A stretch of 34,734 nucleotides of DNA from the NCBI GenBank assembly GCA_964552115.1, contig CAZKGF010000002.1, positions 535 to 35,268 on the forward strand, in the 5' to 3' direction. Both the position numbers and the translations under genes were made by a program. Below are positions 2,925 to 19,756 of this stretch, one piece after another (within the stretch, counting starts at the first letter, position 1; every line of letters begins with the position of its first letter). The DNA is from an uncultured Halobacteriales archaeon (lineage in GTDB: Archaea; Halobacteriota; Halobacteria; Halobacteriales; Haloarculaceae). The notes beneath the pieces are model-generated. The model did not search any database and had not been told where the DNA came from. It was given only the letters and a program-made list of their open reading frames with translations.

Positions 2925-2972
2925 GGGCGGACTGTGCCGTCGCGACGTAAGGATCTACTGGGTCGTCGGTAC

Positions 2973-4025
2973 TCAGTCGTCACCGGCAGCGCTGGCTTCC
3001 GTGGATTGTTCCGTCTCCCTGGGCACCGTCTCCTCTAAATAGTCGTCCGCGTCCAGTGCTGCCTTGCTTCCCATGCCACCGGCCGTGACGGCTTGTTGAT
3101 AATGGAAATCAACGACGTCACCGGCACCGAATATACCGTCCACGCCCGTCTTCGTCTGACCAGCGCCCCGACCCCCTTCCGTGACGACATAGCCCGCATC
3201 GTCCATCTCGACCGCCGTCCCCTCGAGGTACCCCGTGTTCGGGGTGTGCCCGATCGCCAAAAACACGGCGCCGACGTCGAGTTCGAACGTCTCCGTCTCC
3301 GGTTCGTCGAGGTTTTCTTTCGGATAGCCGGTTTCGTTCCTGGCGAGGACGGTGTAATCCACTCCATCGTCAGCCGAACCAGTGATCTCCAGCAGTTCGG
3401 TGTTCCGCAGGATCTCTATATCGCCCGCGTCCACGTGCTCCATGAGGCGGTCGATCCAGTAATCCTCAGCCCTGAATTTCTCTCTTCGATGAGCAACGTA
3501 GACTGTGTCGGCGAACTTCGTGAGGAAACACGCCTCCTCCATCGCTGCATCTCCACCGCCGACGACGAGCATGTCTTCCCCGCGGAAAAAGGCACCATCG
3601 CAGGTCGCACACGTCGAAACTCCGTATCCCATTAACTCGTCTTCGCCCGGGACGCCGAGCGTTCGGGCGCTCGCCCCGGACGCGGCGATGAACGCGTCAC
3701 AGGTGTATTGATCGCCTGTTTTGAGTTCGACACGAAGGGGGTCACTCGAGTCATCGACGTCGACGACGATCCCGTGGTCGATTTCGGCACCGAATCGAGT
3801 TGCCTGCTCTTTCATCCGCTGGACCAACTCTGGCCCTCCGATCCCCTCGGGAAACCCAGGATAGTTCGCCACGTCGGTCGTAAGGGTAAGTTGTCCCCCT
3901 GGTTCATCCCCTTCCAGAACGAGAGGGTCATTGTTCGAGCGGCCTGCGTAGATCGCGGCCGTGAGGCCGGCGATTCCAGTCCCAGCGATGATGAGTCGAC
4001 GGTGTTCGACCGTGTCGTCTGGCAT
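2973..4025 (-). CDS. trxB: thioredoxin-disulfide reductase
   Basis: FAD motif IIAGTGIAGLTAA, redox CATCDG, NADPH motif VVGGGDAAMEEA, and GHTPNT/GAGDV. ATG at 4025..4023 (MPDDTVEH...). The track start at 4034 is a GTG. Confidence 0.93.
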   Translation of the reverse strand: MPDDTVEHRRLIIAGTGIAGLTAAIYAGRSNNDPLVLEGDEPGGQLTLTTDVANYPGFPEGIGGPELVQRMKEQATRFGAEIDHGIVVDVDDSSDPLRVELKTGDQYTCDAFIAASGASARTLGVPGEDELMGYGVSTCATCDGAFFRGEDMLVVGGGDAAMEEACFLTKFADTVYVAHRREKFRAEDYWIDRLMEHVDAGDIEILRNTELLEITGSADDGVDYTVLARNETGYPKENLDEPETETFELDVGAVFLAIGHTPNTGYLEGTAVEMDDAGYVVTEGGRGAGQTKTGVDGIFGAGDVVDFHYQQAVTAGGMGSKAALDADDYLEETVPRETEQSTEASAAGDD

Positions 4026-4146
4026 GCGTTTCACTTCACCGTGAAGCTGTTTGTACGTTCCGCCAAGGGACTTGTATAGCTCCGGAGATAGCCGTCAGTG
4101 CCCCAGTATCCCCTACTATAAGGGCGGTTGTGGCATATCGAGGGGC

Positions 4147-4431
4147 ATGGCTGCCGAACTCCAGGAAAAGACCGACCGGTACGAACGGCTGTTGGCTGCG
4201 GCACTCGACGCTGCAGAGATCGCTCCACCCTCCGATACGCCCCTGGCAACTGCAGCTGAGGACTGCTATGAAATGGCTGAATCCTATCTGGCCGATGGTC
4301 GTCATTTTCGTACTGACGACGATCCGGTGAACGCACTCGCAGCGTTCGCCTACGGACACGGCTGGTTGGATGCGGGTGCACGCGTTGGTCTGTTGTCAGT
4401 CCCCAGGGACGACGAATTATTCACCGTCTGA
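4147..4431 (+). CDS. DUF357-family protein
   Basis: MAAELQEKTDRYERLL...AESYLADGRHFRTDDDPVNALAAFAYGHGWLDAGARVGLL matches my recollection of the DUF357 pattern. ATG at 4147 confirmed. The upstream part of the track ORF is not protein-like. Confidence 0.6.
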   Translation: MAAELQEKTDRYERLLAAALDAAEIAPPSDTPLATAAEDCYEMAESYLADGRHFRTDDDPVNALAAFAYGHGWLDAGARVGLLSVPRDDELFTV

Positions 4432-4522
4432 GGGGCAGTAACGTTGCCCACGTGCGAAGAGATGACATGTGAAGGTGTAACGGATATCGGCCCCCCGTCA
4501 TGCGATACCGTAGCCAGGCTTG

Positions 4523-4536
4523 CGAAAGATTTATAA
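4523..4536 (+). promoter_or_regulatory. BRE/TATA promoter of tfb
   Basis: CGAAAG (4523..4528) followed by TTTATAA (4530..4536). Predicted TSS is near 4559, giving a leader of about 50 nt to the ATG at 4611. Confidence 0.55.
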
Positions 4537-4610
4537 GAGTTACGGACTTACTATAAGTGAAGACAAGCCACCGGCGGAGAGGTGGCTTTCGCACCCACGT
4601 GACAATCCAA

Positions 4611-5576
4611 ATGAGTGAAACTAGCATCCGAAACCCGAAAGAACGCATTGAGGAGGAGACAGAATCCGAAACGACCCACCAGGACGTTTGTCCCGAGTGT
4701 AGCGGCCGCGTCGTTTCCGACGAAGAGCACGGGGAGTCAGTCTGTACGGACTGTGGCCTCGTAATCGAAGAGAACGAGATCGATCGCGGTCCCGAATGGC
4801 GTGCGTTCGACGCCGGTGAACGCGATCAGAAGTCCCGTGTCGGGGCCCCGACGACCCAGATGATGCACGACAAGGGGCTCTCGACGAATATCGGCTGGCA
4901 GAACAAGGACGCATACGGTCGGTCGCTGAATTCGAACCAGCGCGAAAAGATGCAACGCCTCCGGACGTGGAACGAGCGGTTCCGAACCCGGAACTCGAAA
5001 GAGCGCAATCTCAAACAGGCGTTGGGTGAGATCGACCGGATGGCGAGTGCCCTGGGACTGCCGGAGAACGTCCGTGAGACCGCATCGGTGATCTATCGGC
5101 GAGCGCTTTCCGAGGACCTTCTCCCCGGACGGTCCATTGAGGGAGTCGCCACGGCGGCACTATACGCAGCAGCCCGCCAAGCCGGAACGCCTCGCAGCCT
5201 CGACGAAATCGAACGCGTCTCTCGAGTCGACCACATGGAGTTGACGCGTACCTACCGGTACATTGTCAAGGAATTGAAGTTGGAAGTCAAACCCGCAGAC
5301 CCCGAGAGCTACGTCCCCCGGTTCGTTTCGGACTTGGATGTCTCGGACGAGGTCGAACGACAGGCGCGAGATCTGATCGAGAGCGGTCGGCAGGCCGGGC
5401 AACTCAGCGGAAAATCCCCAGTCGGCCTCGCGGCAGCAGCCGTGTATGCGGCCGCACTCCTGACCAACCAAAAGGTCACGCAGAGCGAAGTTTCGGAGGT
5501 CGCCAACGTCTCGGAAGTAACGATCCGAAACCGGTACAAGGAACTCCTCGAGGCTGAAGGCGTCCAGACGGCCTGA
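4611..5576 (+). CDS. tfb: transcription initiation factor IIB (TFB)
   Basis: N-terminal zinc ribbon CPECSGRVVSDEEHGESVCTDCG and a B-finger/linker, then two cyclin-like repeats (NLKQALGEIDRMASALGLP..., ...VSEVTIRNRYKEL). ATG 4611 confirmed. The GTG at 4557 lies at or before the predicted TSS. Confidence 0.93.
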   Translation: MSETSIRNPKERIEEETESETTHQDVCPECSGRVVSDEEHGESVCTDCGLVIEENEIDRGPEWRAFDAGERDQKSRVGAPTTQMMHDKGLSTNIGWQNKDAYGRSLNSNQREKMQRLRTWNERFRTRNSKERNLKQALGEIDRMASALGLPENVRETASVIYRRALSEDLLPGRSIEGVATAALYAAARQAGTPRSLDEIERVSRVDHMELTRTYRYIVKELKLEVKPADPESYVPRFVSDLDVSDEVERQARDLIESGRQAGQLSGKSPVGLAAAAVYAAALLTNQKVTQSEVSEVANVSEVTIRNRYKELLEAEGVQTA

Positions 5577-5581
5577 TTTTT
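5577..5581 (+). terminator. oligo-T terminator after tfb
   Basis: TTTTT immediately follows the TGA stop (5574..5576). Archaeal termination commonly uses T-runs. Confidence 0.4.
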
Positions 5582-5631
5582 CTCGCCGGCGCACAAGTCT
5601 TTTGAGCGATCACCGGGATGTGTTGGCATAC

Positions 5632-5811
5632 ATGGAGGAGACGTACGTCCGTTTACTGTGTGCGGAGTGCGCAAAAGAGTGGGAAGCCACGCCTGGGGAG
5701 TTACCAGCCCCCAACGAAACCTTTCACTGCCCCAACTGTCACAACAGTCGACGGTTGGCCGAATTCATGCGAACGGAACACGACCTCAAGACGCTGAAAC
5801 GGCTGGGTTGA
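5632..5811 (+). CDS. small zinc-finger protein (two CxxC pairs)
   Basis: MEETYVRLLCAECAKEWEATPGELPAPNETFHCPNCHNSRRL... carries CAEC and CPNC pairs, typical of small haloarchaeal zinc-ribbon proteins. ATG at 5632. The track start at 5602 is a TTG. Confidence 0.6.
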   Translation: MEETYVRLLCAECAKEWEATPGELPAPNETFHCPNCHNSRRLAEFMRTEHDLKTLKRLG

Positions 5812-5914
5812 CGAGTCGGATCGACGCTGCTACGTCTGTGGTCCGACGCGTTCAGGCCCACCGTCATCCGATCGATTGCCTCGAGCTGACCTCGGGCACC
5901 GTGGGTCGAGTCAG

Positions 5915-6319
5915 TTAGGAACCCGCAGTCGAGCGCGCACCACAGGCTTCACATCTGAGCAACACTGCCCCCTGTTCGCGTTCGAGTCTGGTGTCGGGTA
6001 AGCCACATTCCGGACAGCGAACGTAGGTCTCTGTGTACGCCTCGACTGCGTCAGCCATCCGACTCGAACCGAACTCGCCGGTTAGGCGTGCTCGCCCCGA
6101 TTCGTCGATGTGGCCGCTGGTTCCCAACTCGTTTTGCAGAAACTTCATCAGATGATCCGCATCGCGGTCGAGGTTGTTACACAAGTCCTGAAAATTCTCG
6201 ACGACAGTTACGTTTCCTTCTTGCCGGACCTCCGGATCGGGACCGTCGAACCGTTCTGAACCGTCCTCGATATCGGGGGTTTCCTCGATTCCCCGGTCGA
6301 GCATCTCTTCGTAGTCCAT
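5915..6319 (-). CDS. eif2b: translation initiation factor aIF-2 subunit beta
   Basis: MDYEEMLDRG..., HLMKFLQNELGTSG, and a C-terminal zinc ribbon YVRCPECGLPDT...LRCEACG. 134 aa, ATG confirmed. Confidence 0.92.
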   Translation of the reverse strand: MDYEEMLDRGIEETPDIEDGSERFDGPDPEVRQEGNVTVVENFQDLCNNLDRDADHLMKFLQNELGTSGHIDESGRARLTGEFGSSRMADAVEAYTETYVRCPECGLPDTRLEREQGAVLLRCEACGARSTAGS

Positions 6320-6349
6320 ACGGAGTCAAGAGGGGGTATCGAAAAATGC

Positions 6350-6760
6350 TTAACGCTGTGTTCGCTTCCCGTCAACCGGTTCTGCGGGGACACCAGCGAC
6401 GGTCGAGCCTTCTGGCACGTCGGAGGCGACGAGTGAGTTGGCTGCGACTCGGGCGTCCGCTCCGATTTCGACGCCGGGTAATACGATGGCGCCTGCACCG
6501 ATCATCGCCCGTTCTCCGATCCGAACCGGTCCGGTTCTGAGTTCGTCCTGGAGGAACTCGTGACAGAGGATCGTCGCGTCGTACCCTACGATCGCGTCGG
6601 CCTGGATGGTAATTAATTGCGGATAAAACACGTCGGGCGTCGCTTCCAGGGCGAAGACGGCGCCAGCCTCGATGGACATGCCGAGCCGCCGAAGCAGCCA
6701 CCGTTTCGCCCGGAGGCTGGGGGAGATCCGGCAGATGACGATCACGACGTAATTGAGCAT
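6350..6760 (-). CDS. hexapeptide-repeat (LbH) acetyl/acyltransferase, WcaF/maltose O-acetyltransferase-like
   Basis: The last 136 codons of the 283-aa track ORF carry the domain: IGERAMIGAGAIVLPGVEIGADARVAANSLV. ATG at 6760..6758 (MLNYVVIV...). The upstream part is Arg/Pro-rich junk. Confidence 0.75.
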   Translation of the reverse strand: MLNYVVIVICRISPSLRAKRWLLRRLGMSIEAGAVFALEATPDVFYPQLITIQADAIVGYDATILCHEFLQDELRTGPVRIGERAMIGAGAIVLPGVEIGADARVAANSLVASDVPEGSTVAGVPAEPVDGKRTQR

Positions 6761-6970
6761 GATTCGCAGTGGATTATGGTGTCGATGCCACCCGCGGAAC
6801 GAGTTGTGTGAATCAGGAGCTAGATGGGACGAGAGGCGCTCGTGACGTGGATCCTCGTCGCTCACACTGTCGCATTTGCGGGGCTGGGTCTTGAATACGG
6901 CGGGCCGACCACCATCGAGCCCGTAATTGCGGACGGTAGACTTAGGGACAGCCTCACCCAGGTTTTCCCC

Positions 6971-7834
6971 ATGTCGATGTCTATGGATGCTGTTGACCGG
7001 ATCGGTGTCGTGGGCGCGGGGACGATGGGGAGTGGTATCGCTCAGGTGGCTGCAGCGGCCGGGTTTGATGTCACCATTCGGGACGTCGACGACTCGCTTG
7101 TCGACGACGGCCTGGAGGCAGTCGAATCTGGGCTCGACCGGGCGGTCGATCGGGGTGAGCTTACTCAGAGCCAGGCCACGGCTGCTCGGGAACGAGTGCA
7201 CGGAACGACCGACCTATCAGACCTGGCCGATTGCCAGCTATGTATCGAAGCAGTCGTCGAGGACTTGCGCGTCAAGCGTGACGTCTTGGCGGATCTCGAT
7301 CGGATGACGGCCTCAGATGTTATTCTTGGGACCAACACGTCGACGCTTTCGATTACCGCACTGGCGGCCGCCACAGACCGGCCAAGCCAGGTGATCGGTA
7401 TCCATTTCATGAATCCGGTCCCGCGGATGCGAGGGGTGGAAATCGTCGTCGGCGAACGGACGGCACCGTTCGTGGTCGAACTCGGCCACGAATTTGCTGC
7501 TGCACTCGACAAGGAGACGTGGGAGTCCGACGATAAGCCCGGCTTCGTTACCAACCGGATTCTCATGCCCTGGATCAACGAGGGGATCCGTGCCTACGAC
7601 GAGGGAGTCGCATCGAAAGCCGATATCGATCGGGGAATGGAACTCGGGACGAACGTCCCAATGGGGCCGTTGGCGTTGGCGGATCACATCGGGCTGGATA
7701 TCTGTCTTCACGCCAGCCAGACGCTCCACGACGAGTTAGGTGAGCGCTTCCGGCCGGCGTATCTCCTCGCTCGGAAGGTCGAGGCCGGAGATCTCGGAAA
7801 GAAGACCGGACGTGGGTTTTACGAGTACGACTAG
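6971..7834 (+). CDS. hbd: 3-hydroxyacyl-CoA (3-hydroxybutyryl-CoA) dehydrogenase
   Basis: Rossmann motif IGVVGAGTMGSGIAQ, then NTSTLSIT, HFMNPVP, PGFVTNRIL. ATG at 6971 gives 287 aa, typical for the family. Confidence 0.9.
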   Translation: MSMSMDAVDRIGVVGAGTMGSGIAQVAAAAGFDVTIRDVDDSLVDDGLEAVESGLDRAVDRGELTQSQATAARERVHGTTDLSDLADCQLCIEAVVEDLRVKRDVLADLDRMTASDVILGTNTSTLSITALAAATDRPSQVIGIHFMNPVPRMRGVEIVVGERTAPFVVELGHEFAAALDKETWESDDKPGFVTNRILMPWINEGIRAYDEGVASKADIDRGMELGTNVPMGPLALADHIGLDICLHASQTLHDELGERFRPAYLLARKVEAGDLGKKTGRGFYEYD

Positions 7835-7841
7835 CGCCGAC

Positions 7842-9563
7842 TCATAGAACAGTGCCGTGTTTTTTCGAGGGGAGTTCCTTGTCGAGATCTGCATAAAACT
7901 CGAACCGGGCCTGTAACTCCGCTCGGAGCGAACTCGGCGGGACGATCTCGTCGATGACAACCTCGCTCGCCATGCGCATCGCGTCGATGTCCTCTCGGTA
8001 CTCCTCACGGAGTTCGGCCTCGAGGCGGTCTCGCTCGGCCCCGTCCTCGACAGCTGCGAGTTTACTCGCATACACTGCATTGACCGCGGCCTCCGGGCCC
8101 ATGATTGCCACTTCACCGCTGGGTAACGCGATGGTGGATTCGGGATCGTACGCCGGGCCGGACATCGCGTAGATTCCCGCGCCGTATGCCTTTCGGACGA
8201 TCACACACTGTTTGGGGACGGTCGCCGCAGACGTAGCATAGATCATCTTCTTGCCTTTCTCGAGAATGCCTTCTTTCTCGACTGCCCCACCAGCCATGAA
8301 GCCGGGTGTATCCACTAGATACAGTAGGGGAATGTTGTAGGCATCACAGGTCCAGATGAACCCGGCTGCCTTTTCGGCTGCGTCGGGGAAGATCGCACCC
8401 GCCCGCTGTGTGGGTTGGTTTGCTACGATGCCGATCGGGCGGCCGTCGATGCGGGCGAACCCGGTGAGTATTTCCGATCCGTACGCTGGCTGCAGTTCGA
8501 ACCACGAGTCCCGATCCACCACGCGGCGGATCACCGCCTCCATCTGATAGCCCCGATTTGGCTCCTGCGGAATCACGCTATCAATGCCTTCGGGGGATTG
8601 GGCAGGTGGGCGGCCCGTTGTCTGTGGGGGTGACTGCTCACAGTTCTGTGGCAAGTACCCAACAAGCGTAGCCACCAATTCGCGTGCGTGGTCCTCGTCA
8701 TCGGCGATCAAATCCGCGCTCCCGGAATGTTTGGCGTGGACCTCTGGGCCACCGAGTTCGGCCATCGTTACGTCTTCACCAGTCACCATTTTGACCATTC
8801 GGGGGCTGGCGATGGCCATCGCACTCATTTCTTTGACCATCACGGTGAAGTCCGCAAAGACCGGTGTGTACGCGGCCCCCGCGATACAGGGACCGTAGAG
8901 CACACAGATCTGCGGGACGCGGCCGGAGAGCCGTGAATGGTTGTAATAATACTTCCCGATACCCTCACGATGAGCAAAGAATCCGGTCTGCTGATCGATC
9001 CGGCCACCCGAGGAGTCCATCAGGTACAGCACAGGATTGCCGGTCTTCAGGGCGCGCTCTTGCATCCTGAGAAATTTCTCGACCCCTTTCGCCGCCATGC
9101 TCCCCCGTTTGACGGTATAGTCCGTGGCCATGAAGTGGACGTCTCGGCCTTCGAAATCCGCGCCACCCGTGATCATCCCATCGGCTGGGAGTTGCTCGGC
9201 AGAATCGAATTCCGCGAAGGTCCCGTCTTCGAACAAGAAACCGTCGGATCCGAACCAGTGTTCGATTCGATCACGGACGAACCGTTTGCCTTGTTCGGGT
9301 AACTCCTCGCGATACCGTTCGGGTCCACCCTGGTGAATCTCCTCGATCTCTTCGGTGAGCCGACGCTCCCGCTCGGTTGGTCCAAGTTCGTCCGCTTCGA
9401 CGGCATCGGAGGCCGGTTCCTCGGTCGGTTCTGCTGGGGCACTGGCCAGTTCTTCGCCCGATCGATCCATGACTGTGACTGGATGACCAAACCGCTCGGC
9501 GATGGCGATAGCGATCGCTTGGGCCTCGTCCGTACTCGTTTCTCCAGAGACTCTGACGTTCAT
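7842..9563 (-). CDS. acyl-CoA carboxylase carboxyltransferase (beta) subunit, propionyl-CoA carboxylase / methylmalonyl-CoA decarboxylase family, with an N-terminal extension of about 70 aa
   Basis: Typical CT motifs: GGADFEGRDVHFMATDYTVKRGSM, DSSGGRIDQ, GPCIAGAAYTP, and IVANQP...GAIF in the C-terminal half. ATG at 9563..9561 (MNVRVSG...). The track start is further upstream but not protein-like. Confidence 0.88.
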   Translation of the reverse strand: MNVRVSGETSTDEAQAIAIAIAERFGHPVTVMDRSGEELASAPAEPTEEPASDAVEADELGPTERERRLTEEIEEIHQGGPERYREELPEQGKRFVRDRIEHWFGSDGFLFEDGTFAEFDSAEQLPADGMITGGADFEGRDVHFMATDYTVKRGSMAAKGVEKFLRMQERALKTGNPVLYLMDSSGGRIDQQTGFFAHREGIGKYYYNHSRLSGRVPQICVLYGPCIAGAAYTPVFADFTVMVKEMSAMAIASPRMVKMVTGEDVTMAELGGPEVHAKHSGSADLIADDEDHARELVATLVGYLPQNCEQSPPQTTGRPPAQSPEGIDSVIPQEPNRGYQMEAVIRRVVDRDSWFELQPAYGSEILTGFARIDGRPIGIVANQPTQRAGAIFPDAAEKAAGFIWTCDAYNIPLLYLVDTPGFMAGGAVEKEGILEKGKKMIYATSAATVPKQCVIVRKAYGAGIYAMSGPAYDPESTIALPSGEVAIMGPEAAVNAVYASKLAAVEDGAERDRLEAELREEYREDIDAMRMASEVVIDEIVPPSSLRAELQARFEFYADLDKELPSKKHGTVL

Positions 9564-9732
9564 CGGCCTCGCTCCGTTGGGTCGCCTGCTCCGGGAGCGA
9601 ATGGCTCCGGGAGGGAGCCCGACGCTTCGCACACTTCTCTCGGTGCCCACCCGAACGCCGTTCGGTCTCCGTTCGGCCTCGTTGGCTCCATATCTCGATT
9701 GCTTTGCATACCGATTCCCCCGGGCAGTTTAC

Positions 9733-11022
9733 TCACTGCCGAAGGTCGGTCATGTGGTCGATTCGCTGTTTAACCAGGGCTTCGGTTCCGATATCGTGGC
9801 GGACCCGGAGATCGTCCTCGTTGAGCCCTTCGAACCCAGCCTCTACGATTTCCTCTGCAGCCGAAATCGATGCCGCCACCCCGACGAGGGCGAACGCTCG
9901 CGATGTGGTCGTATAGATCCCATCTGCCCGCTCGTCAACGCTCGCATAGAATAGGTGGGCATTTCCGACAGTTTCCTCATCGATGGTCACTTTGGCACCA
10001 GACTCGGGTGCCGTCGGATATCCTGCCGGGACTGCATATTTACACACTGTTGCCTGTGGACGAAACGTCAATCGTGGAAGTGACTCGCCGTCCCTGGCCG
10101 CTCGCACGATATCGAGGAGTCCTGTCTGCATGATCGGCAAGGTATTCATCGCCTCGGGATCCCCAAACCTCGCGTTGAACTCGACCACTTTGACGCCCGC
10201 TGCCGTCAGCATGAACTGGCCGTACAGAATCCCCTTGTAGCTCTCGAGGGCATCGGCTGTCTTGCGAATGATGTCGACGGCGTCCATGTACTCCGATTCT
10301 GTCATGAACGGAAGTTCCAGTGTCGTGTCGGAGTAACTCCCCATTCCGCCGGTATTGGGCCCCTCATCGCCCTCGTAGGCACGCTTGTGGTCCTGAACAG
10401 CCGGTGTCACCCGAACGTCGCCATTGGCGACAAACGCCTGGATCGTAAACTCCTCACCGATGAGCCGTTCTTCGAGGACAAGCCGTTCGTACTCGGATTC
10501 ACGGATGTAGGCTTTGGCCTCCGAGGGGGTGACTTGATCACCGATCACCCGGACCCCCTTCCCCCCGGTTAACCCTGCTGGCTTGACAACTAGATCGCGA
10601 TCGGCAGCGTCGATGTAGTCACACGCGGCCTCGGGTTCGTCGAAGGTTTCGAATTCGGGGCACCCGGGAATGTCGTGCCGGCGCATGAACCGACGTTGGT
10701 AGGCCTTGTCAGTCTCGATTCTGGCGTCCGCTTCGGTGGGCCCGAACGCGTAGATGCCGGCCCCATCAAGTGCGTCGACGACCCCCGCCTGCAGGGGCGC
10801 TTCTGGTCCCACGATCGCTATATCGGCACCGACCCGCGTCGCGTATTCGGTGACGGCAGATGGATTCGTGGCTTCCAGCGTTTCGAATCCAGTGGCAAGG
10901 CGGGCGATCCCTGGATTTCGGGTCCCAGCGCACGCATAGAGCGCACAGTCGCCAGTCGTGAGCGACCGCGCGATGGCGTGTTCGCGGCCGCCTCCACCGA
11001 CTAGCAACACTGCCTCAGCCAT
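9733..11022 (-). CDS. purD: phosphoribosylamine--glycine ligase
   Basis: VLLVGGGGREHAIA, an ATP-grasp body, EFNARFGDPE. ATG at 11022..11020 (MAEAVLLVGG...). Confidence 0.93.
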   Translation of the reverse strand: MAEAVLLVGGGGREHAIARSLTTGDCALYACAGTRNPGIARLATGFETLEATNPSAVTEYATRVGADIAIVGPEAPLQAGVVDALDGAGIYAFGPTEADARIETDKAYQRRFMRRHDIPGCPEFETFDEPEAACDYIDAADRDLVVKPAGLTGGKGVRVIGDQVTPSEAKAYIRESEYERLVLEERLIGEEFTIQAFVANGDVRVTPAVQDHKRAYEGDEGPNTGGMGSYSDTTLELPFMTESEYMDAVDIIRKTADALESYKGILYGQFMLTAAGVKVVEFNARFGDPEAMNTLPIMQTGLLDIVRAARDGESLPRLTFRPQATVCKYAVPAGYPTAPESGAKVTIDEETVGNAHLFYASVDERADGIYTTTSRAFALVGVAASISAAEEIVEAGFEGLNEDDLRVRHDIGTEALVKQRIDHMTDLRQ

Positions 11023-13713: not shown

Positions 13714-14187
13714 CTACTCACCCGGAGATGAGGGCCCGGACTCCTGACTGCGGGCCGTGGATGCCCCGCCCAATTGCTCCCGAAGAATTCTGCGGTGACA
13801 CCGTTTGTCGTCGCCTTCATAGCAGACGAGAACGACCGTTTCGCCGTCCCCTAGTCGATTGGAGAGGTCGTTCAATGCCGGGTTCGGCGCCTCGTCCGAA
13901 TCCAAATAGTCTCGGTACCGTCTCGCAAAATCCACTTCCTCCCAGGCTGCGTTCAGAGCAGCTGTCTCAGCGTATCCACGGTCCTCGAAGTTTGCCTCGA
14001 CGCGCTTGCATTCCTCGAGGAGTGACTCGGGTGGTCCCAGGGCCCGATAGTTGTAGTCGATTTCCGCATAGAACCACGGCGTCGGTCTCCTGACGACGCC
14101 GGCGAGGTGCTCGTCCCCGGCCAGTTCGACCAGGTCGTTTTGAAGCGCCGCGACGTAGGTATCCCGGACCGTCCCTCGAGATCCCAT
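13714..14187 (-). CDS. DUF488-family protein
   Basis: C-terminal VVLVCYEGDDKRCHRRILREQL and a mid-region W..F...Y pattern recall DUF488 (YeaO-like). ATG at 14187..14185. An alternative GTG lies at 14232. Confidence 0.6.
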   Translation of the reverse strand: MGSRGTVRDTYVAALQNDLVELAGDEHLAGVVRRPTPWFYAEIDYNYRALGPPESLLEECKRVEANFEDRGYAETAALNAAWEEVDFARRYRDYLDSDEAPNPALNDLSNRLGDGETVVLVCYEGDDKRCHRRILREQLGGASTARSQESGPSSPGE

Positions 14188-14283
14188 GTAGGCGTTTCGT
14201 TGTACTGCGTCAAGACGGTTTGGCCCAGGCACGCTCTGCCGGGGACAGGGCGTGTAAATGGGAGGATACCGAAGCGGTCTGTA

Positions 14284-15189
14284 GTGAAAGCCGATATTCT
14301 CGAAACCATCGGGTCGCCGCTCGTCGCTGTGGAGGCGCCTGATGGCACGACGATTGCAGCGAAGATCGAATCCAAAAATCCAGGCGGTTCGGCCAAGGAT
14401 CGCCCAGCTCGGGCGATGGTAGAGGCAGCCGAGAAAGCGGGGGATTTGGAACAGGGAGATACGATCGTCGAGCCCACGAGCGGAAACACGGGGATCGGCC
14501 TCGCCGTCGTCGGTGCTGCCAAAGGGTACGACGTTCGGTTGGTCATGCCTGCCTCGAAGTCGCCCGAACGTCGCTCATTGATGCGTGCCTACGGGGCCGA
14601 AGTGGAACTCATTGAAGGGGATATTTCCGCTGCTCGGACCCGGGCGGACGAACTGGCTGCGCGTGATACCTTCGTGCAGATGCACCAATTCGAGAACCCG
14701 GCCAATCCTGACGCTCACTATCGGACCACCGGACCGGAAATTCTGGACCAGGTCGGCGACCGGCGGATAGACGCATTCGTGGCGGGTATCGGGACTGGAG
14801 GGACCATCAGCGGGACGGGTCGTCGTCTTCGAGAAGCCGTTCCTACCATCGACATCGTCGGGGTCGAGCCGGCGGAGAATGCCGTCCTTTCGGGGGGCGA
14901 ATCGGGCGAAGACGAGTTCCAAGGGATGGGGCCTGGCTTCGTTTCAGACAATCTCGATCGGTCGTTGTTGGACGAAGTGGAGACGGTGACAATCGACGAG
15001 GCGGAGGCGGAGTGCAGACGTCTGGCACGGTCCGAGGGGATTCTCGTCGGCCAGTCCAGTGGCGCGTCGAACCTCGCTGCCAAACGGGTTGCCAGGCGTC
15101 TCAGGGACCGTATCGATGATCCCCTCGTCGTCACCATCTTTTGGGATTCGGGTGAGCGGTACCTCTCGACCGGGCTGTTCGACGAGTGA
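14284..15189 (+). CDS. cysK: cysteine synthase (O-acetylserine sulfhydrylase), PLP-dependent
   Basis: KIESKNPGGSAKDRPA (PLP Lys), EPTSGNTGIGLA, GIGTGGTISG. GTG at 14284 gives MKADILETIGSPLV... (301 aa). The upstream track extension overlaps the divergent DUF488 gene. Confidence 0.9.
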   Translation: MKADILETIGSPLVAVEAPDGTTIAAKIESKNPGGSAKDRPARAMVEAAEKAGDLEQGDTIVEPTSGNTGIGLAVVGAAKGYDVRLVMPASKSPERRSLMRAYGAEVELIEGDISAARTRADELAARDTFVQMHQFENPANPDAHYRTTGPEILDQVGDRRIDAFVAGIGTGGTISGTGRRLREAVPTIDIVGVEPAENAVLSGGESGEDEFQGMGPGFVSDNLDRSLLDEVETVTIDEAEAECRRLARSEGILVGQSSGASNLAAKRVARRLRDRIDDPLVVTIFWDSGERYLSTGLFDE

Positions 15190-15206: not shown

Positions 15207-16643
15207 CTATAATAAGCGCCGCGGCAGCCGATGCCCCCGCTCGCGGATCCGGTCACGGATCGGAAACAGATTGACGAGAAGGGCGGTGACGATGGCGATG
15301 GCGAACCCAACGCCGAATCCGAGGAGGTGGCCGAGTATCCATACCGCTTGTGTGCCCGGGGTCTGTGCGGGGACGAGTCCGACACCAAATCCGACGAAGA
15401 CGATCGTGACGAGGAGGATGACACTGAATTGTTTGAGGAGGATTGGTACTCCCGTTTCTGTTCTCCGAGTCGCCTTGACCCGATTTCGGATGATCCAAAG
15501 GCCACAGACTGCCGTCAGGCCCGCGGTGATGGTGACCAGTGGTGAGCCGAAGATTCCCAACAAGACGTCGAGTGCGACGAGAACCATGAACGATCCGACG
15601 AGAAAGACATCTCGGTGGTCGTACACGGTCCGGAGGAGGACCAGAAATGCGACGAGGAGAAAGCCGACGAAACCAGCGACTACGTCAGAGAACCCGAGGA
15701 ACTGCGTGGCGTAGCCGGGGTATACCGTCGCGGACAGCCCGTACCCCACCCCTCTGGTCAGGAGGGGAAGGACGAACACCAGAGGTGCTGCGGTCAGGTA
15801 AAACCAGTTGGCGGCACTGATCCGGAGACAGACGACGTAGGTGAGTGAGGCGATGAGGACATATCCGATTATATTGCCGGCCAAATGCCCCAAATCCACG
15901 TGGACGACGGTTGTGAGGAGGGAAACGAGGATGTTCTGACTCGGCGTTCCGTAGGCAAGAATTCGCTCGAGTCCGTCCGGGAATCCGAGATGGATTCCGA
16001 TCAGGACCGCTGGGACAACAGCGAGTAGCATACTGTCGAATACCACGCGTCGACGGGGATACCGGAGGTAGGTATCGTTGCCCGGCTCGGCCTGCTCGGT
16101 AAGCTGTGTGTTGACCTGATCACGCAAATCTGCCAATTCAGCCGTCAATACTTGGTAAGCAGAACTTTGGCGGAGTTCGCTCGGCGTCTTATTGGCCTCG
16201 AGTGTATCTCGTTTCGAGGCTAAGGCGAAAAATCGTTGTAAGTCAGACTCCGATCGGTTGCGGGTTGCCAGGTGATCGACGGTGGATAGCAGATCATCGG
16301 CCGTAATCGGTTTTGTAAGGTACTCGTCGATATCCAGTTTGAGGATGTCGAAGTCGGGATCGACTGCGGTCACCAGTGCGACCCGACAGCTGTGGCCGCG
16401 CTCGCGGATGCGACCGAGGACATCGTCACCCGAGATGTCCGGGAGCCGACGGTCTAGTAAGACGACGTCGACCGTATCATCGACCGCGTCTAGAGCCCCT
16501 TCGCCGGTGTATGCTGTCCGAACGTCGTAGGCGTCCGCAAGCCACGAGGAGAAGACGTCAGCCAAGTCACGCTCGTCTTCGACGACGAGCACGACTGGCG
16601 AATCCCCGGTTTCCTTCGACGAAGCGGTCCCGAGCCCCTCCAT
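15207..16643 (-). CDS. response regulator (REC) - HalX domain - polytopic rhomboid-like membrane domain fusion protein
   Basis: REC residues: VVEDE, LLD, VALVTA, YLTKP. HalX-like helix: FFALASKRDTLEANKT...YQVLTAELADLRDQ. About 8 hydrophobic spans carry HVDLGHLAGN, LGFSDVVAGF and GHLLGFGVGFAIA. ATG at 16643..16641. An in-frame TTG at 16712 would add 23 aa. Confidence 0.8.
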   Translation of the reverse strand: MEGLGTASSKETGDSPVVLVVEDERDLADVFSSWLADAYDVRTAYTGEGALDAVDDTVDVVLLDRRLPDISGDDVLGRIRERGHSCRVALVTAVDPDFDILKLDIDEYLTKPITADDLLSTVDHLATRNRSESDLQRFFALASKRDTLEANKTPSELRQSSAYQVLTAELADLRDQVNTQLTEQAEPGNDTYLRYPRRRVVFDSMLLAVVPAVLIGIHLGFPDGLERILAYGTPSQNILVSLLTTVVHVDLGHLAGNIIGYVLIASLTYVVCLRISAANWFYLTAAPLVFVLPLLTRGVGYGLSATVYPGYATQFLGFSDVVAGFVGFLLVAFLVLLRTVYDHRDVFLVGSFMVLVALDVLLGIFGSPLVTITAGLTAVCGLWIIRNRVKATRRTETGVPILLKQFSVILLVTIVFVGFGVGLVPAQTPGTQAVWILGHLLGFGVGFAIAIVTALLVNLFPIRDRIRERGHRLPRRLL

Positions 16644-16754
16644 TACTTGGATAGGGGTTTCGGGAGCAGTACTTCTAGGTTTTGACTTTTCATCGTGGTG
16701 TTCTGTGGGCAATCCGTCCCTCCTCGAGGGACGGTGGTTCTCCAGGCCGTGTAG

Positions 16755-17261
16755 TCAGGCTCCGAACTCGGACTCGGTGACTCGAACACGGAGCGTCTCG
16801 TCGACGGCTTGGAGATCGTAGTCGGGAATGGTCTCACCGGTTCGTGTCACGAACATCGGTTCGACGAGTCTCGGTTTGTCGGCGGGCGCGTCGACGGCGT
16901 CCTGGTCCGATTCCGCCTCCTCGCTGCCAGTCTGGACACCGTACACTTTGAGAAATCGCCCGGATTCGGCGGCTGTGATTTCGTCAGTACGGATTGCCGT
17001 CGCCAATGCCCGCGAAAGCCATTCTGTTTCGCTAATGGACGGTTCGAGTATCATCGCTTGATCGACGTATCGAACCAAGTACCAGTTGAGATCATTCAGT
17101 AAGGAGACGGCTGCTCCGAGACTAACGGTGTCCAGGGCGATCGTGTTTTCGAACGGCTCTGATAAGTCATACGTGAGCAACGCATTGCGAGCCGTCTCGT
17201 AGGAGAGGAGCTGATACCGGAGATTGACGTCGGCTGCGCCCACGAGACAGACCCGCGTCAT
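16755..17261 (-). CDS. hypothetical protein (168 aa), no family recognised
   Basis: Acidic halophile-like composition. ATG at 17261..17259 (MTRVCLVGAADVNLRYQLL...). Same strand as, and immediately upstream of, the REC-HalX-membrane gene. The track start at 17288 is a TTG. Confidence 0.6.
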   Translation of the reverse strand: MTRVCLVGAADVNLRYQLLSYETARNALLTYDLSEPFENTIALDTVSLGAAVSLLNDLNWYLVRYVDQAMILEPSISETEWLSRALATAIRTDEITAAESGRFLKVYGVQTGSEEAESDQDAVDAPADKPRLVEPMFVTRTGETIPDYDLQAVDETLRVRVTESEFGA

Positions 17262-17310
17262 GGCCACGAGGTGCAGGCCGCCGTGCAAAGCGGTTTCGAC
17301 CGCTCACCCG

Positions 17311-18510
17311 TCACGGTGGCGGCTGTATCTGTGCCCCAATGTCTTCCGCCCGATCCAGAAGGTCGTCCGGTTCGGCGGCCTCGAGTGTCGATAGCTCCGC
17401 ACGCGTTTCTGGGAACGACGGCGCAACCCGATTGCAGCCAGCATCGATCGTGGCATCGTCGTACGTCCCGATTTCCCGTGCTTGGGCCTCGATTTCCGGT
17501 TTGTCCATAGACAGCAGTGGCCGATGGATCGGAAGCGAGGTCGCAGCGCTAGTGACGCTCAGATTGGCCGCCGTCTGGCTGGATTTCTGGCCCAGTGCTT
17601 CGCCACTGACGATCCCGGCTGCACCCACACGTCGGGCAACCGTGGCACCGACTCGATACATGAACCGTCGGAGCGACAACATCCGCATGGCACCCATCGA
17701 CTCCGCCAATTCTGCGACGATATCACCGCCTGGAGCGACGTGCAGTGTAAGGTCTTGGCCTGGAGCCCACTCGCCGAGGGATCCGACCGTGGCAGCCGCC
17801 CGCGCCTGGTGATCGGGCCCTCCATAATCGCCAAGGTCGACGTAGACCGGGATGATTGGTGATCCACGTCGCATGACGTTCCAGGCAGCCACCGGCGAGT
17901 CGATCCCTCCGCTGACGAGGACCACGAGTGGGGCTTGGGTTCCGAGTGGCAATCCACCCGGCCCGGAACGTTTTTCGACGAAGAGGTAGGCATCGTCGGA
18001 GCGACACTCGACGTAAAACGTCAGTTCAGGATTCTCCAGGTCGACCTCCGGATCGTGGCCGGCTGCTTCGGCTGTCTCCCAGATAGCAGTTCCCCCTGCT
18101 TCTTCGATGTCCGGGCTCCCGAAGGGGTGGGCATCGGTATCGCCAGCCCGGCGTGCTCTGACGGCAAACGGGCCCCCGTCGTACAGTTCTCGAGCGCTGT
18201 CAGCGAGTCCGTCTGTGATGGCCTCGAGGGTGGGATCGACGCGCAATGCCGGGCTGGCAGAGACCACGCCGAAGACACGCGTCGCGGCGTCTGTCGCTAC
18301 CTCGACTGCATTCCGGGAATCGGCGACGGCTGGTTGCCTAATGTATAGCCGCGTTCGTTCCTGGACGACTCTGCCGTCGATCCCGTCCGCCTGGATGGCG
18401 GCTGCAAGGTTGTCCCGCAGTTGGCCCTCCATGGACCGGCGGACCTGCTCGCTCTTGATGCCGATGTCCCCGTGTCTAACGAGGACCTGATCGGCACCGG
18501 GTGGATGCAT
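17311..18510 (-). CDS. thiI: tRNA 4-thiouridine sulfurtransferase ThiI (THUMP + PP-loop)
   Basis: LVRHGDIGIKS at the N-terminus, a THUMP-like middle, and PP-loop VLVSGGIDSPVAAW. 399 aa, ATG confirmed. Confidence 0.88.
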   Translation of the reverse strand: MHPPGADQVLVRHGDIGIKSEQVRRSMEGQLRDNLAAAIQADGIDGRVVQERTRLYIRQPAVADSRNAVEVATDAATRVFGVVSASPALRVDPTLEAITDGLADSARELYDGGPFAVRARRAGDTDAHPFGSPDIEEAGGTAIWETAEAAGHDPEVDLENPELTFYVECRSDDAYLFVEKRSGPGGLPLGTQAPLVVLVSGGIDSPVAAWNVMRRGSPIIPVYVDLGDYGGPDHQARAAATVGSLGEWAPGQDLTLHVAPGGDIVAELAESMGAMRMLSLRRFMYRVGATVARRVGAAGIVSGEALGQKSSQTAANLSVTSAATSLPIHRPLLSMDKPEIEAQAREIGTYDDATIDAGCNRVAPSFPETRAELSTLEAAEPDDLLDRAEDIGAQIQPPP

Positions 18511-18553
18511 GCGATTCCCTAGTAGACAGGCGGATAAACCGGTGTCGTCCCCA

Positions 18554-19756
18554 TCAGAACGTACTCAGTTCGTCGGCGACGATGCGTTCGGTGATTTCGG
18601 TGACGTTTGCGAGCTCGGTATCGATCGCCGTCTCGATATCGGACGTGATTTCCCCGACGTCGACGTCGTCAGTCGTGACCACCTCGGCATCCGCGACGTG
18701 AGGGTGATCGATTGGTTGGCCGATCTGACTTAGGAGACGGATTTGGAGTTGCCGAACCCCCCTAACGTCTTCAGCGACCGTCTTGGCTATTTCCGTGCTC
18801 AACAGATTGTAGATCTTCCCGATGTGATTCACCGGATTCTTTCCGCTCGTGGCCTCCATACTCATGGGCCGGTTTGGAGTAATCAGACCGTTCGCCCGAT
18901 TCCCCCGACCGACAGAACCGTCGTCCCCTTGTTCGGCACTCGTCCCGGTCGTCGTCAGATAAATCGACCCCTCGTCGTAATCGTCAGCCGTGTTCACGTG
19001 GACGGTAACCGATCGATCGGTATACTCTCTGGCCAGATCGGCCACGTACGTTCGGACCTCCTCGACGGCAGATCGGTACTCGTCGAGATCGTGAATGTAC
19101 CGATCGATCATGGCAGCAGCCACCGTCACGTCGATCTGATCGTGTTGCCGCTTACCCATGACTTTCAAGTCCTCGCCCAATTCTGGATGCTCGACGCTGT
19201 ACTCTCCGTTCAATCGTCGCTCTGTCTGGAGGACGATTCGCTCGGTTTCGGTCAACGGTGCGTGTCCGACCCCGTAACTCGTGTCGTTGGCCATGGGGAC
19301 GGAGGTATCATCCCCGAAGACCTCCTGGAGGTCACCGCTTCCCTCACCGAGTCGGACGTCAATCACGACGTCAGACCCGATGTCCAGATTCGGAAAGTTT
19401 TCGTCGAGATACTCCCGGGCCGCGTCAAGCGCGACGGTTTCAGTGGGGATGCGTTCGCCCTGATAGGTCTTCGTCGCCCGGCCAACGATCAAGAGATATA
19501 TCGGTTCGAGCATCTCTCCCCCGCCGAACTTGGGATCGGCGTTACCAGCGACTAACTGAGTTTCATCAGTGTTGAAGTGGAGAACAGTGTCGAATCGGTC
19601 GAGATAAAGGCGAGCAAGTCGCCGTGAGACCGTCTCGGCGACGCCGTCACAGATGGAGTCGGGATGGCCCAATCCCTTACGCTCGACGATTTCGACGGCC
19701 TGGTCTTCGACGGGGCGGCCGCCGGCCGCCTGGACGCTAATGTTCCGCTCGGTCAT
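18554..19756 (-). CDS. metK: S-adenosylmethionine synthetase, archaeal type
   Basis: [30 protein letters not shown], and [31 protein letters not shown] are characteristic of archaeal MAT. 400 aa. Confidence 0.93.

Follow-up and report, generated by a model that had tools for sequence, protein, structure and literature searches.

What is a two-component receiver doing in front of a polytopic membrane domain, and what is that domain? Both questions are raised by a 34,734-nucleotide stretch of DNA from an uncultured Halobacteriales archaeon (GenBank assembly GCA_964552115.1, contig CAZKGF010000002.1, positions 535 to 35,268; the whole stretch is called the window here). An earlier note, made from the letters of the window, had read one of its genes as a receiver (REC) and a HalX segment joined to a rhomboid-like membrane part. 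The product of this gene is very probably a REC-HalX module fused to a rhomboid-superfamily domain with its catalytic residues in place. The chances are about even that it acts as a rhomboid-type intramembrane protease under phospho-receiver control, the control of proteolysis by phosphorylation being the part that we infer.

The open reading frame (ORF) was uninterrupted, as had been claimed, with no internal stops, and encodes 501 aa from a TTG at 16712. The NCBI call for the contig (P0001) begins at an ATG at 16643 and gives 478 aa. The ATG is probably the real start, because homologues begin 8-24 residues ahead of strand beta-1, residues 1-36 were disordered in the full-length AlphaFold2 model, and 111 bp then separate the ATG from the upstream gene. 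Residue numbers throughout refer to the 501-aa version (start TTG). The gene and its cytoplasmic part are laid out as follows.

15207..16712, minus strand: whole ORF including the stop codon, 501 aa from the TTG or 478 aa from the ATG at 16643
16278..16592, minus strand: receiver (REC), residues 41-145 (Pfam Response_reg)
16086..16262, minus strand: HalX, residues 151-209, a helical hairpin (Pfam HalX)
16056..16085, minus strand: juxtamembrane linker, about residues 210-219, YLRYPRRR, flexible and basic/aromatic (model confidence and alignment)

The receiver and the HalX segment had been recognised from motifs, and profile hidden Markov model (HMM) searches bore out both. Pfam Response_reg matched residues 41-145 (2.4e-17, 63.5 bits against a cut-off of 30.2), and the strings quoted earlier lie at VVEDE 43-47, LLDRR 85-89, VALVTA 111-116 and YLTKP 131-135. 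These hold the acidic pair E44/D45, the phospho-acceptor Asp87 (nt 16452..16454), Thr115 and Lys134, all of which were conserved across the clade of fusion proteins described below; in the alignment, LLDRRLP was kept in every fusion member with the receiver region present. Pfam HalX matched residues 151-209, directly after REC (8.2e-16, 58.6 bits against a cut-off of 23.2). In the full-length AlphaFold2 model the receiver had a predicted local distance difference test score (pLDDT) of about 90, and the HalX hairpin extended REC helix alpha-5 (helices 138-174 and 184-207, pLDDT 81-88). The linker, of some ten residues with pLDDT <50 for residues 208-216, leads into the first transmembrane helix (TM1).

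REC-HalX regulators (PF00072 + PF08663) are familiar in haloarchaea, where HalX is among the commonest output domains of archaeal response regulators, with >550 proteins in a 2018 census (PMC5847659). The architectures in that census were HalX, REC-HalX and HxlR-REC-HalX only and, unlike the window protein, none had a membrane or protease output (PMC5847659). Haloferax volcanii QarC and QarA share the REC-HalX module with all phospho-acceptor residues (PMC5847659, PMC13464002), and in QarA HalX sits between REC and the effector part, in the order REC-HalX-GAF-BAT-HTH (PMC13464002).

The membrane part and its motifs are as follows.

15267..16055, minus strand: eight-helix membrane domain assigned to the rhomboid superfamily, residues 220-482 (family search, Pfam on relatives, AlphaFold2, Foldseek)
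15873..15902, minus strand: H271-x4-H276-x3-N280 at the start of TM2, HVDLGHLAGN, residues 271-280 (alignment, hhalign to GlpG)
15684..15695, minus strand: G340-F-S342-D343, with the putative nucleophile Ser342 as first residue of TM4 (alignment, model)
15468..15617, minus strand: TM5 and TM6, residues 366-415 (models, per-helix conservation)
15306..15332, minus strand: G461-H462-x2-G465-x3-G469 in TM8, with the putative general base His462 (alignment)
15210..15272, minus strand: cytoplasmic basic C-terminal tail NLFPIRDRIRERGHRLPRRLL, residues 481-501, found in the fusion clade only (motif scan, alignment)

To collect relatives of this domain, representative clusters were searched exhaustively with HMMER, the profile coming from the only two fusion proteins known at that stage. 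This recovered at least 254 clusters at E<=1e-3, 108 of them at E<=1e-10; word-index homology searches gave two or three relatives only. Most members are stand-alone proteins of 265-300 aa (about 280), matched across the whole domain. The named ones among them are halobacterial and carry the label 'hypothetical protein' (for example Halorussus WP_115864734.1), and genome matches fell in Halorubrum, Halalkalirubrum and Haloferacaceae. Across the family, the source names were 'hypothetical protein' or 'OmpR family regulator' only. The stand-alone proteins match the eight-helix domain from end to end (22-34% identity to the window domain) and have its invariant residues, whereas they lack REC-HalX and the conserved basic tail and have Gly after the Ser. 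One of them, P0013 (529 aa, from a Logan contig), continues at its C-terminus with about 250 aa of further polytopic sequence, and this extension matches part of the family HMM (positions 147-230) a second time.

The three rhomboid-type motifs read in the earlier note were all located (Ser342 codon 15687..15689, His462 codon 15327..15329), and they are not chance resemblances: they fall in invariant or near-invariant columns of a 90-member alignment. The only fully invariant columns were N280, P316, G340, S342 and H462, and at least 94% conservation was seen for H271 (88/90), H276 (85/90), G465 (87/90) and G469 (89/90). The catalytic and oxyanion-type residues were also invariant in every member of the fusion clade. 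At the Ser, the family consensus reads RGFSGVVAGF, the canonical rhomboid G-x-S-G. The window protein has Asp343 there, a real deviation, as had been noticed: the residue after the Ser was Gly in 67 and Asp in six of the 90 members.

The roughly eight hydrophobic spans counted at first became eight membrane helices, on which a hydropathy scan and both AlphaFold2 models agreed. Lys and Arg were clustered in alternate loops, those predicted to be cytoplasmic, and in the tail, with one alone in the outside loops; this indicates an N-in/C-in topology. Under it Ser342 and His462 lie in the outer halves of their helices, in agreement with the earlier placement toward the outer leaflet. Between the Ser and His helices there are three helices (366-387, 392-415 and 421-445) rather than one, and therefore two more than in rhomboids with six transmembrane helices; the two added spans seen in the window protein proved common to the whole family. 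TM5, TM6 and TM7 were poorly conserved, TM5 and TM6 being among the least conserved helices. The alignments disagree on which two of helices 5-7 form the insertion, and per-helix conservation does not decide between them. Loop L1 is short and reads FPDGLERILAYGTPSQN. A W-R motif in L1 is common in active rhomboids; none was found in L1 of the window protein or in that of the family consensus.

Is the domain then a rhomboid at all? The catalytic features are those of one: G-x-S at a helix N-terminus, a later His with G-x3-G, and H-x4-H-x3-N in TM2. Sequence matches form a chain through relatives. Pfam Rhomboid (PF01694, gathering cut-off 22.6 bits) matched 39 of the 90 family members at E<=1, and among ten members scanned singly the cut-off was exceeded by P0010 (43.4 bits, 4.9e-11), P0158 (28.5 bits) and P0152 (27.2 bits). 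P0010 was itself recovered by a fusion-only profile at 2.1e-30. The consensus of the whole family scored 40 bits and that of the fusion clade 23.0 bits, barely above the cut-off, while the fusion member P0005 fell below it (21.1 bits, E 3.8e-4). With hhalign, the family was matched to a canonical haloarchaeal rhomboid, encoded beside one of the fusion genes (locus L011), at a probability of 75% and E 2.5e-5 on the TM2 motif. The hhalign comparison with GlpG placed the catalytic positions in register (H271/H276/N280 with H145/H150/N154, Ser342 with S201, and H462/G465/G469 with H254/G257/G261).

The structure prediction proposed in the earlier note gave a rhomboid-like fold. Built with 18 homologues, the AlphaFold2 model of the membrane domain had a pLDDT of 87.9 and a predicted template modelling score (pTM) of 0.86, with Ser342 (domain residue 128) as the N-terminal first residue of its helix. 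In a Foldseek search of the PDB the best 33 matches were all GlpG (probability 0.90-1.00, target-normalised TM-score 0.47-0.58); iRhom1 was also among the matches, and non-rhomboid folds had probabilities of at most 0.25.

Several results weigh against the assignment. The window protein gave no Pfam Rhomboid match even at E<=10, its Pfam and NCBIfam scans returning REC and HalX only. The hhalign comparison with GlpG, alone or as a profile of orthologues, was non-significant (probability 0.5-12%). Foldseek E-values were weak (0.04-0.6) and root-mean-square deviations large, the latter because of the inserted helices. No rhomboid turned up when solved structures were searched by sequence, either with the single domain or with an 18-member profile; the 90-member profile was swamped by receivers because receiver columns had entered it. 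A homology search from GlpG, meant to supply a diverse rhomboid profile, was of little help, as it listed only enterobacterial GlpG sequences of at least 78% identity.

A membrane domain unrelated to rhomboids, for instance a transporter or sensor whose resemblance is convergent or due to chance, would account for the missing sequence match to solved rhomboid structures, by protein or family profile alike, for the non-significant GlpG profile comparison and for Foldseek E-values above 0.01. It leaves unexplained that some members and both consensus sequences score above the Pfam Rhomboid cut-off, that two further rhomboid-type models match family members below their cut-offs (TIGR03902 in 53 of 90, DUF1751 in three of 90), that the best 33 structural matches are rhomboids only, and that the conserved columns stand in register with rhomboid catalytic positions. 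This explanation is very unlikely and may be regarded as largely refuted. The earlier note would have given up its rhomboid call on a missing HMM match together with a non-rhomboid fold. The first holds for the window protein, even though P0010, P0158, P0152 and the consensus sequences lie above the cut-off, and the second does not, the best PDB matches being GlpG. The call made from motifs has thus stood, and now rests on invariant residues, the chain of sequence matches, the predicted fold and the topology. The membrane domain is concluded to represent a divergent rhomboid-superfamily branch with eight helices; its catalytic set is complete, and it falls in no named subfamily.

GlpG of E. 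coli and H. influenzae (MEROPS S54, PF01694) is the best structural match to the model and agrees with it in N-in/C-in topology and in the order, spacing and membrane depth of the motifs. The window domain differs in its two extra helices, in the short L1 without W-R and in GFSD rather than GLSG, and the cytoplasmic N-terminal part is REC-HalX in place of the GlpG N-domain. With eight helices, it fits none of the 6, 6+1 and 1+6 topologies given in a 2025 review (PMC12615303). The Haloferax volcanii rhomboids Rho1 (nine transmembrane segments) and Rho2 (six segments and an AN1 zinc finger) have been linked to motility, adhesion and cell shape (PMC4343526, PMC11985538). Compared by description only, they share with the window protein a non-standard topology or an added N-terminal cytoplasmic domain, whereas they are recognised rhomboid homologues and lack REC-HalX.

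Other membrane-protease types were considered and set aside. As far as is known, rhombosortases are proteobacterial, and they have six transmembrane helices, against eight here. The rhombosortase model TIGR03902 matched just over half of the 90 aligned members weakly, as given above; members scanned singly scored 16-28 bits against an 84-bit cut-off, and the window protein gave no match. The CPBP and archaeosortase types were dropped, as neither motifs nor fold matches point to them.

Whether the domain still cuts is a separate matter. Known pseudoproteases, the iRhoms and derlins, have lost catalytic residues. An iRhom/derlin-like scaffold, which would bind transmembrane clients uncut while the receiver controlled their binding or release, would be in keeping with Asp343 in place of the usual Gly at a position that drifts within the fusion clade (D, N, H, Q, A or G), with two extra helices that could remodel the gate, and with a protein too divergent for the Pfam model. 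The strict conservation of the catalytic residues speaks for a protease instead: Ser, His, Asn and the Gly of G-x-S were present in 90 of 90 members and all invariant within the fusion clade and, unlike in iRhoms, no Pro precedes the Ser position. A pseudoprotease is for this reason disfavoured, and we regard it as distinctly unlikely.

The fusion itself is a recurrent arrangement. In about nine diverged lineages a single ORF encodes REC, HalX and the membrane domain, and the proteins share 37-51% identity with that of the window. Besides the window, single-ORF fusions are P0002, P0154, P0004, P0005, P0008, one in a Haloarculaceae metagenome-assembled genome (MAG; locus L003, 468 aa) and one in a Halovenus MAG (L004, 467 aa). 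P0004 is accompanied by four near-identical JGI/Logan copies (P0164-P0167) named 'OmpR family regulator', and P0003, P0006, P0007 and P0128 are fragments from the same clade. The fusion proteins keep all receiver and protease residues. Scored against a fusion profile they gave 183-557 bits, against at most 128 bits for stand-alone members. The fusion is rare and known only from uncultured haloarchaea.

This recurrence disposes of an artefact, in which an assembly error or frameshift would have joined a REC-HalX gene to an adjacent membrane-protein gene. The earlier note had named a frameshift split in related genomes as a ground for abandoning its reading; the ORF was found whole in other genomes instead. 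Since the same architecture appears in independent assemblies at the identities given above, such an error has practically no probability and is refuted.

All of the approximately nine fusion lineages also carry a tail of their own. A scan of 167 proteins, all except one belonging to the family, found the motif N-x-[FYV]-P-[IV]-[RKG]-[DE] in fusion-clade proteins and their fragments only. The tail consensus, N-x-F-P-I-R-D-R-x4-G-Y-x-L-P-x-R-L-L, is basic, predicted to be cytoplasmic and likewise restricted to the fusion clade; it follows that this tail and REC-HalX were gained or kept jointly.

How might the two ends of the protein be connected? The product would be a response regulator that is embedded in the membrane and has a rhomboid-type intramembrane serine protease as its output. 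A histidine kinase would phosphorylate Asp87 in the cytoplasm, and phospho-Asp87 would make the REC-HalX hairpin change its conformation or its pairing, perhaps with the participation of the basic tail, which lies on the same side of the membrane. The change could then alter the geometry of TM1 or a gate helix, the oligomeric state or the recruitment of substrate, and so turn on or off the cleavage of membrane-protein substrates at an active site open to the outer side. The output of such a pathway would be an irreversible cut in a membrane protein instead of transcription. That phosphorylated Asp87 switches the protease directly, through the HalX hairpin and the clade-specific tail, is put forward tentatively, as somewhat short of an even chance.

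Drosophila Rhomboid-4 and human RHBDL2 respond to Ca2+, and B. subtilis YqgP has a metal-binding N-domain. In these, as in the window protein, the rhomboid core is preceded by a sensory domain in the cytoplasm, which in the known cases regulates gating or the handling of substrates. Their input is ion binding, whereas that of the window protein would be His-Asp phosphotransfer. Regulation of rhomboids through cytosolic extensions is referred to in passages of PMC12615303, PMC13597478 and PMC11985538, and for gating the precedent is Baker & Urban 2015, as cited in a passage of PMC12615303. A transmitter role for HalX fits, because HalX also precedes other effectors, namely those of QarA and the PAS-HisKA-HATPase part of a kinase encoded at L003.

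The following results count against phospho-control of the protease. The full-length AlphaFold2 model had a pTM of 0.56 and no confident contact of REC-HalX with the membrane domain or the tail. Beside REC-HalX in this model the tail gained no confidence (pLDDT 54-66, with the linker below 50). Activity may be altered or weak, given the Asp that directly follows the Ser and the variation at this position within the clade. The window was reported to hold no histidine kinase, and this held at phmmer sensitivity when all window ORFs of at least 70 aa were searched with a haloarchaeal histidine kinase query, to whose kinase part none was similar. Outside the window, the surroundings of six fusion loci and of three stand-alone members were compared, and no conserved partner gene was found.

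Alternatively, the membrane domain would be a constitutively active protease, independent of the receiver. The fusion would then serve mainly to tether REC-HalX at the membrane, where other REC-HalX proteins could pair with it through HalX, or self-cleavage near TM1 could release it. The disordered linker and the lack of confident inter-domain contact agree with this, as do the prediction of HalX as a coiled-coil or pairing module in many haloarchaeal regulators (PMC5847659) and the hybrid kinase next to the L003 fusion gene, whose REC-HalX is much like that of the window protein (phmmer 2.4e-44). The conserved cytoplasmic tail speaks for a tie between the two ends: gained in the fusion clade and absent from stand-alone proteases, it points to co-adaptation of cytoplasmic and membrane parts, and the catalytic residues are invariant throughout the clade. 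Activity independent of the receiver is accordingly held to be rather unlikely, and control of the protease by the phospho-receiver is the reading preferred here.

The surroundings of the gene are housekeeping in character: a cysteine-synthase-type PALP protein, DUF5804, ThiI, an archaeal SAM synthetase, a CYTH-domain protein, PurD and DUF255. The gene immediately upstream is the following.

16755..17288, minus strand: DUF5804 protein (1.8e-53), immediately upstream of the fusion gene

It ends 42 bp before the fusion TTG and 111 bp before the fusion ATG. The PALP ORF (14107..15189(+)) overlaps an opposite-strand DUF488 ORF (13714..14232(-)) by about 125 bp; its true start probably lies well downstream of 14107, because the Pfam match begins at residue 70. 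ThiI and the SAM synthetase (17311..19756(-)), together with three other window proteins, were singletons in 90%-identity clusters of about 15 billion proteins, which places the source lineage among poorly sampled haloarchaea.

Individual fusion loci have neighbours of their own. At L003 a 534-aa REC-HalX-PAS-HisKA-HATPase hybrid kinase (8854..10458(-)) is convergent with the fusion gene and lies one base past its stop codon; this kinase may be a signalling partner of the fusion protein or may pair with it through HalX. At L011 the canonical rhomboid used above (5620..6258(-), 212 aa, Pfam 69.6 bits) is convergent and directly follows the fusion gene P0008. This adjacency was seen at one locus only, the gene being cut off in the two other contigs that carry it. 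At L009 the fusion gene P0154 is followed by a gene for a 1655-aa PKD-repeat protein (2942..7909(-)), which, speculatively, may be a candidate substrate.

In full-text literature searches no combination of a rhomboid with HalX or a receiver was found described, canonical bacterial REC-Rhomboid fusions lying outside this check, which agrees with the earlier statement that no characterised example was known. In the literature searched, a His-Asp phosphotransfer input was likewise undescribed for any rhomboid. Reviews of haloarchaeal rhomboids mention forms with six or more transmembrane segments and AN1-finger forms only (PMC4343526, PMC11985538), and a topology with two added helices between the catalytic helices is absent from those that the reviews describe. 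What is rated as new here, judging from sequence, is a putative rhomboid in which both the regulatory module and the topology are new, from a family overlooked by annotation: a branch of at least 254 sequence clusters has been uncovered.

To our knowledge, the regulation of prokaryotic rhomboids is largely unknown and few of their substrates have been confirmed, and we know of no documented function for HalX. With a rhomboid and HalX in one chain, both questions become testable, by setting receiver phosphorylation against cleavage by the attached protease. If the proposed control is real, these haloarchaea would have a two-component pathway with intramembrane proteolysis as its output. It would be the first direct link of His-Asp phosphotransfer to a rhomboid, and HalX would gain a biochemical role as transmitter between a receiver and an effector domain.

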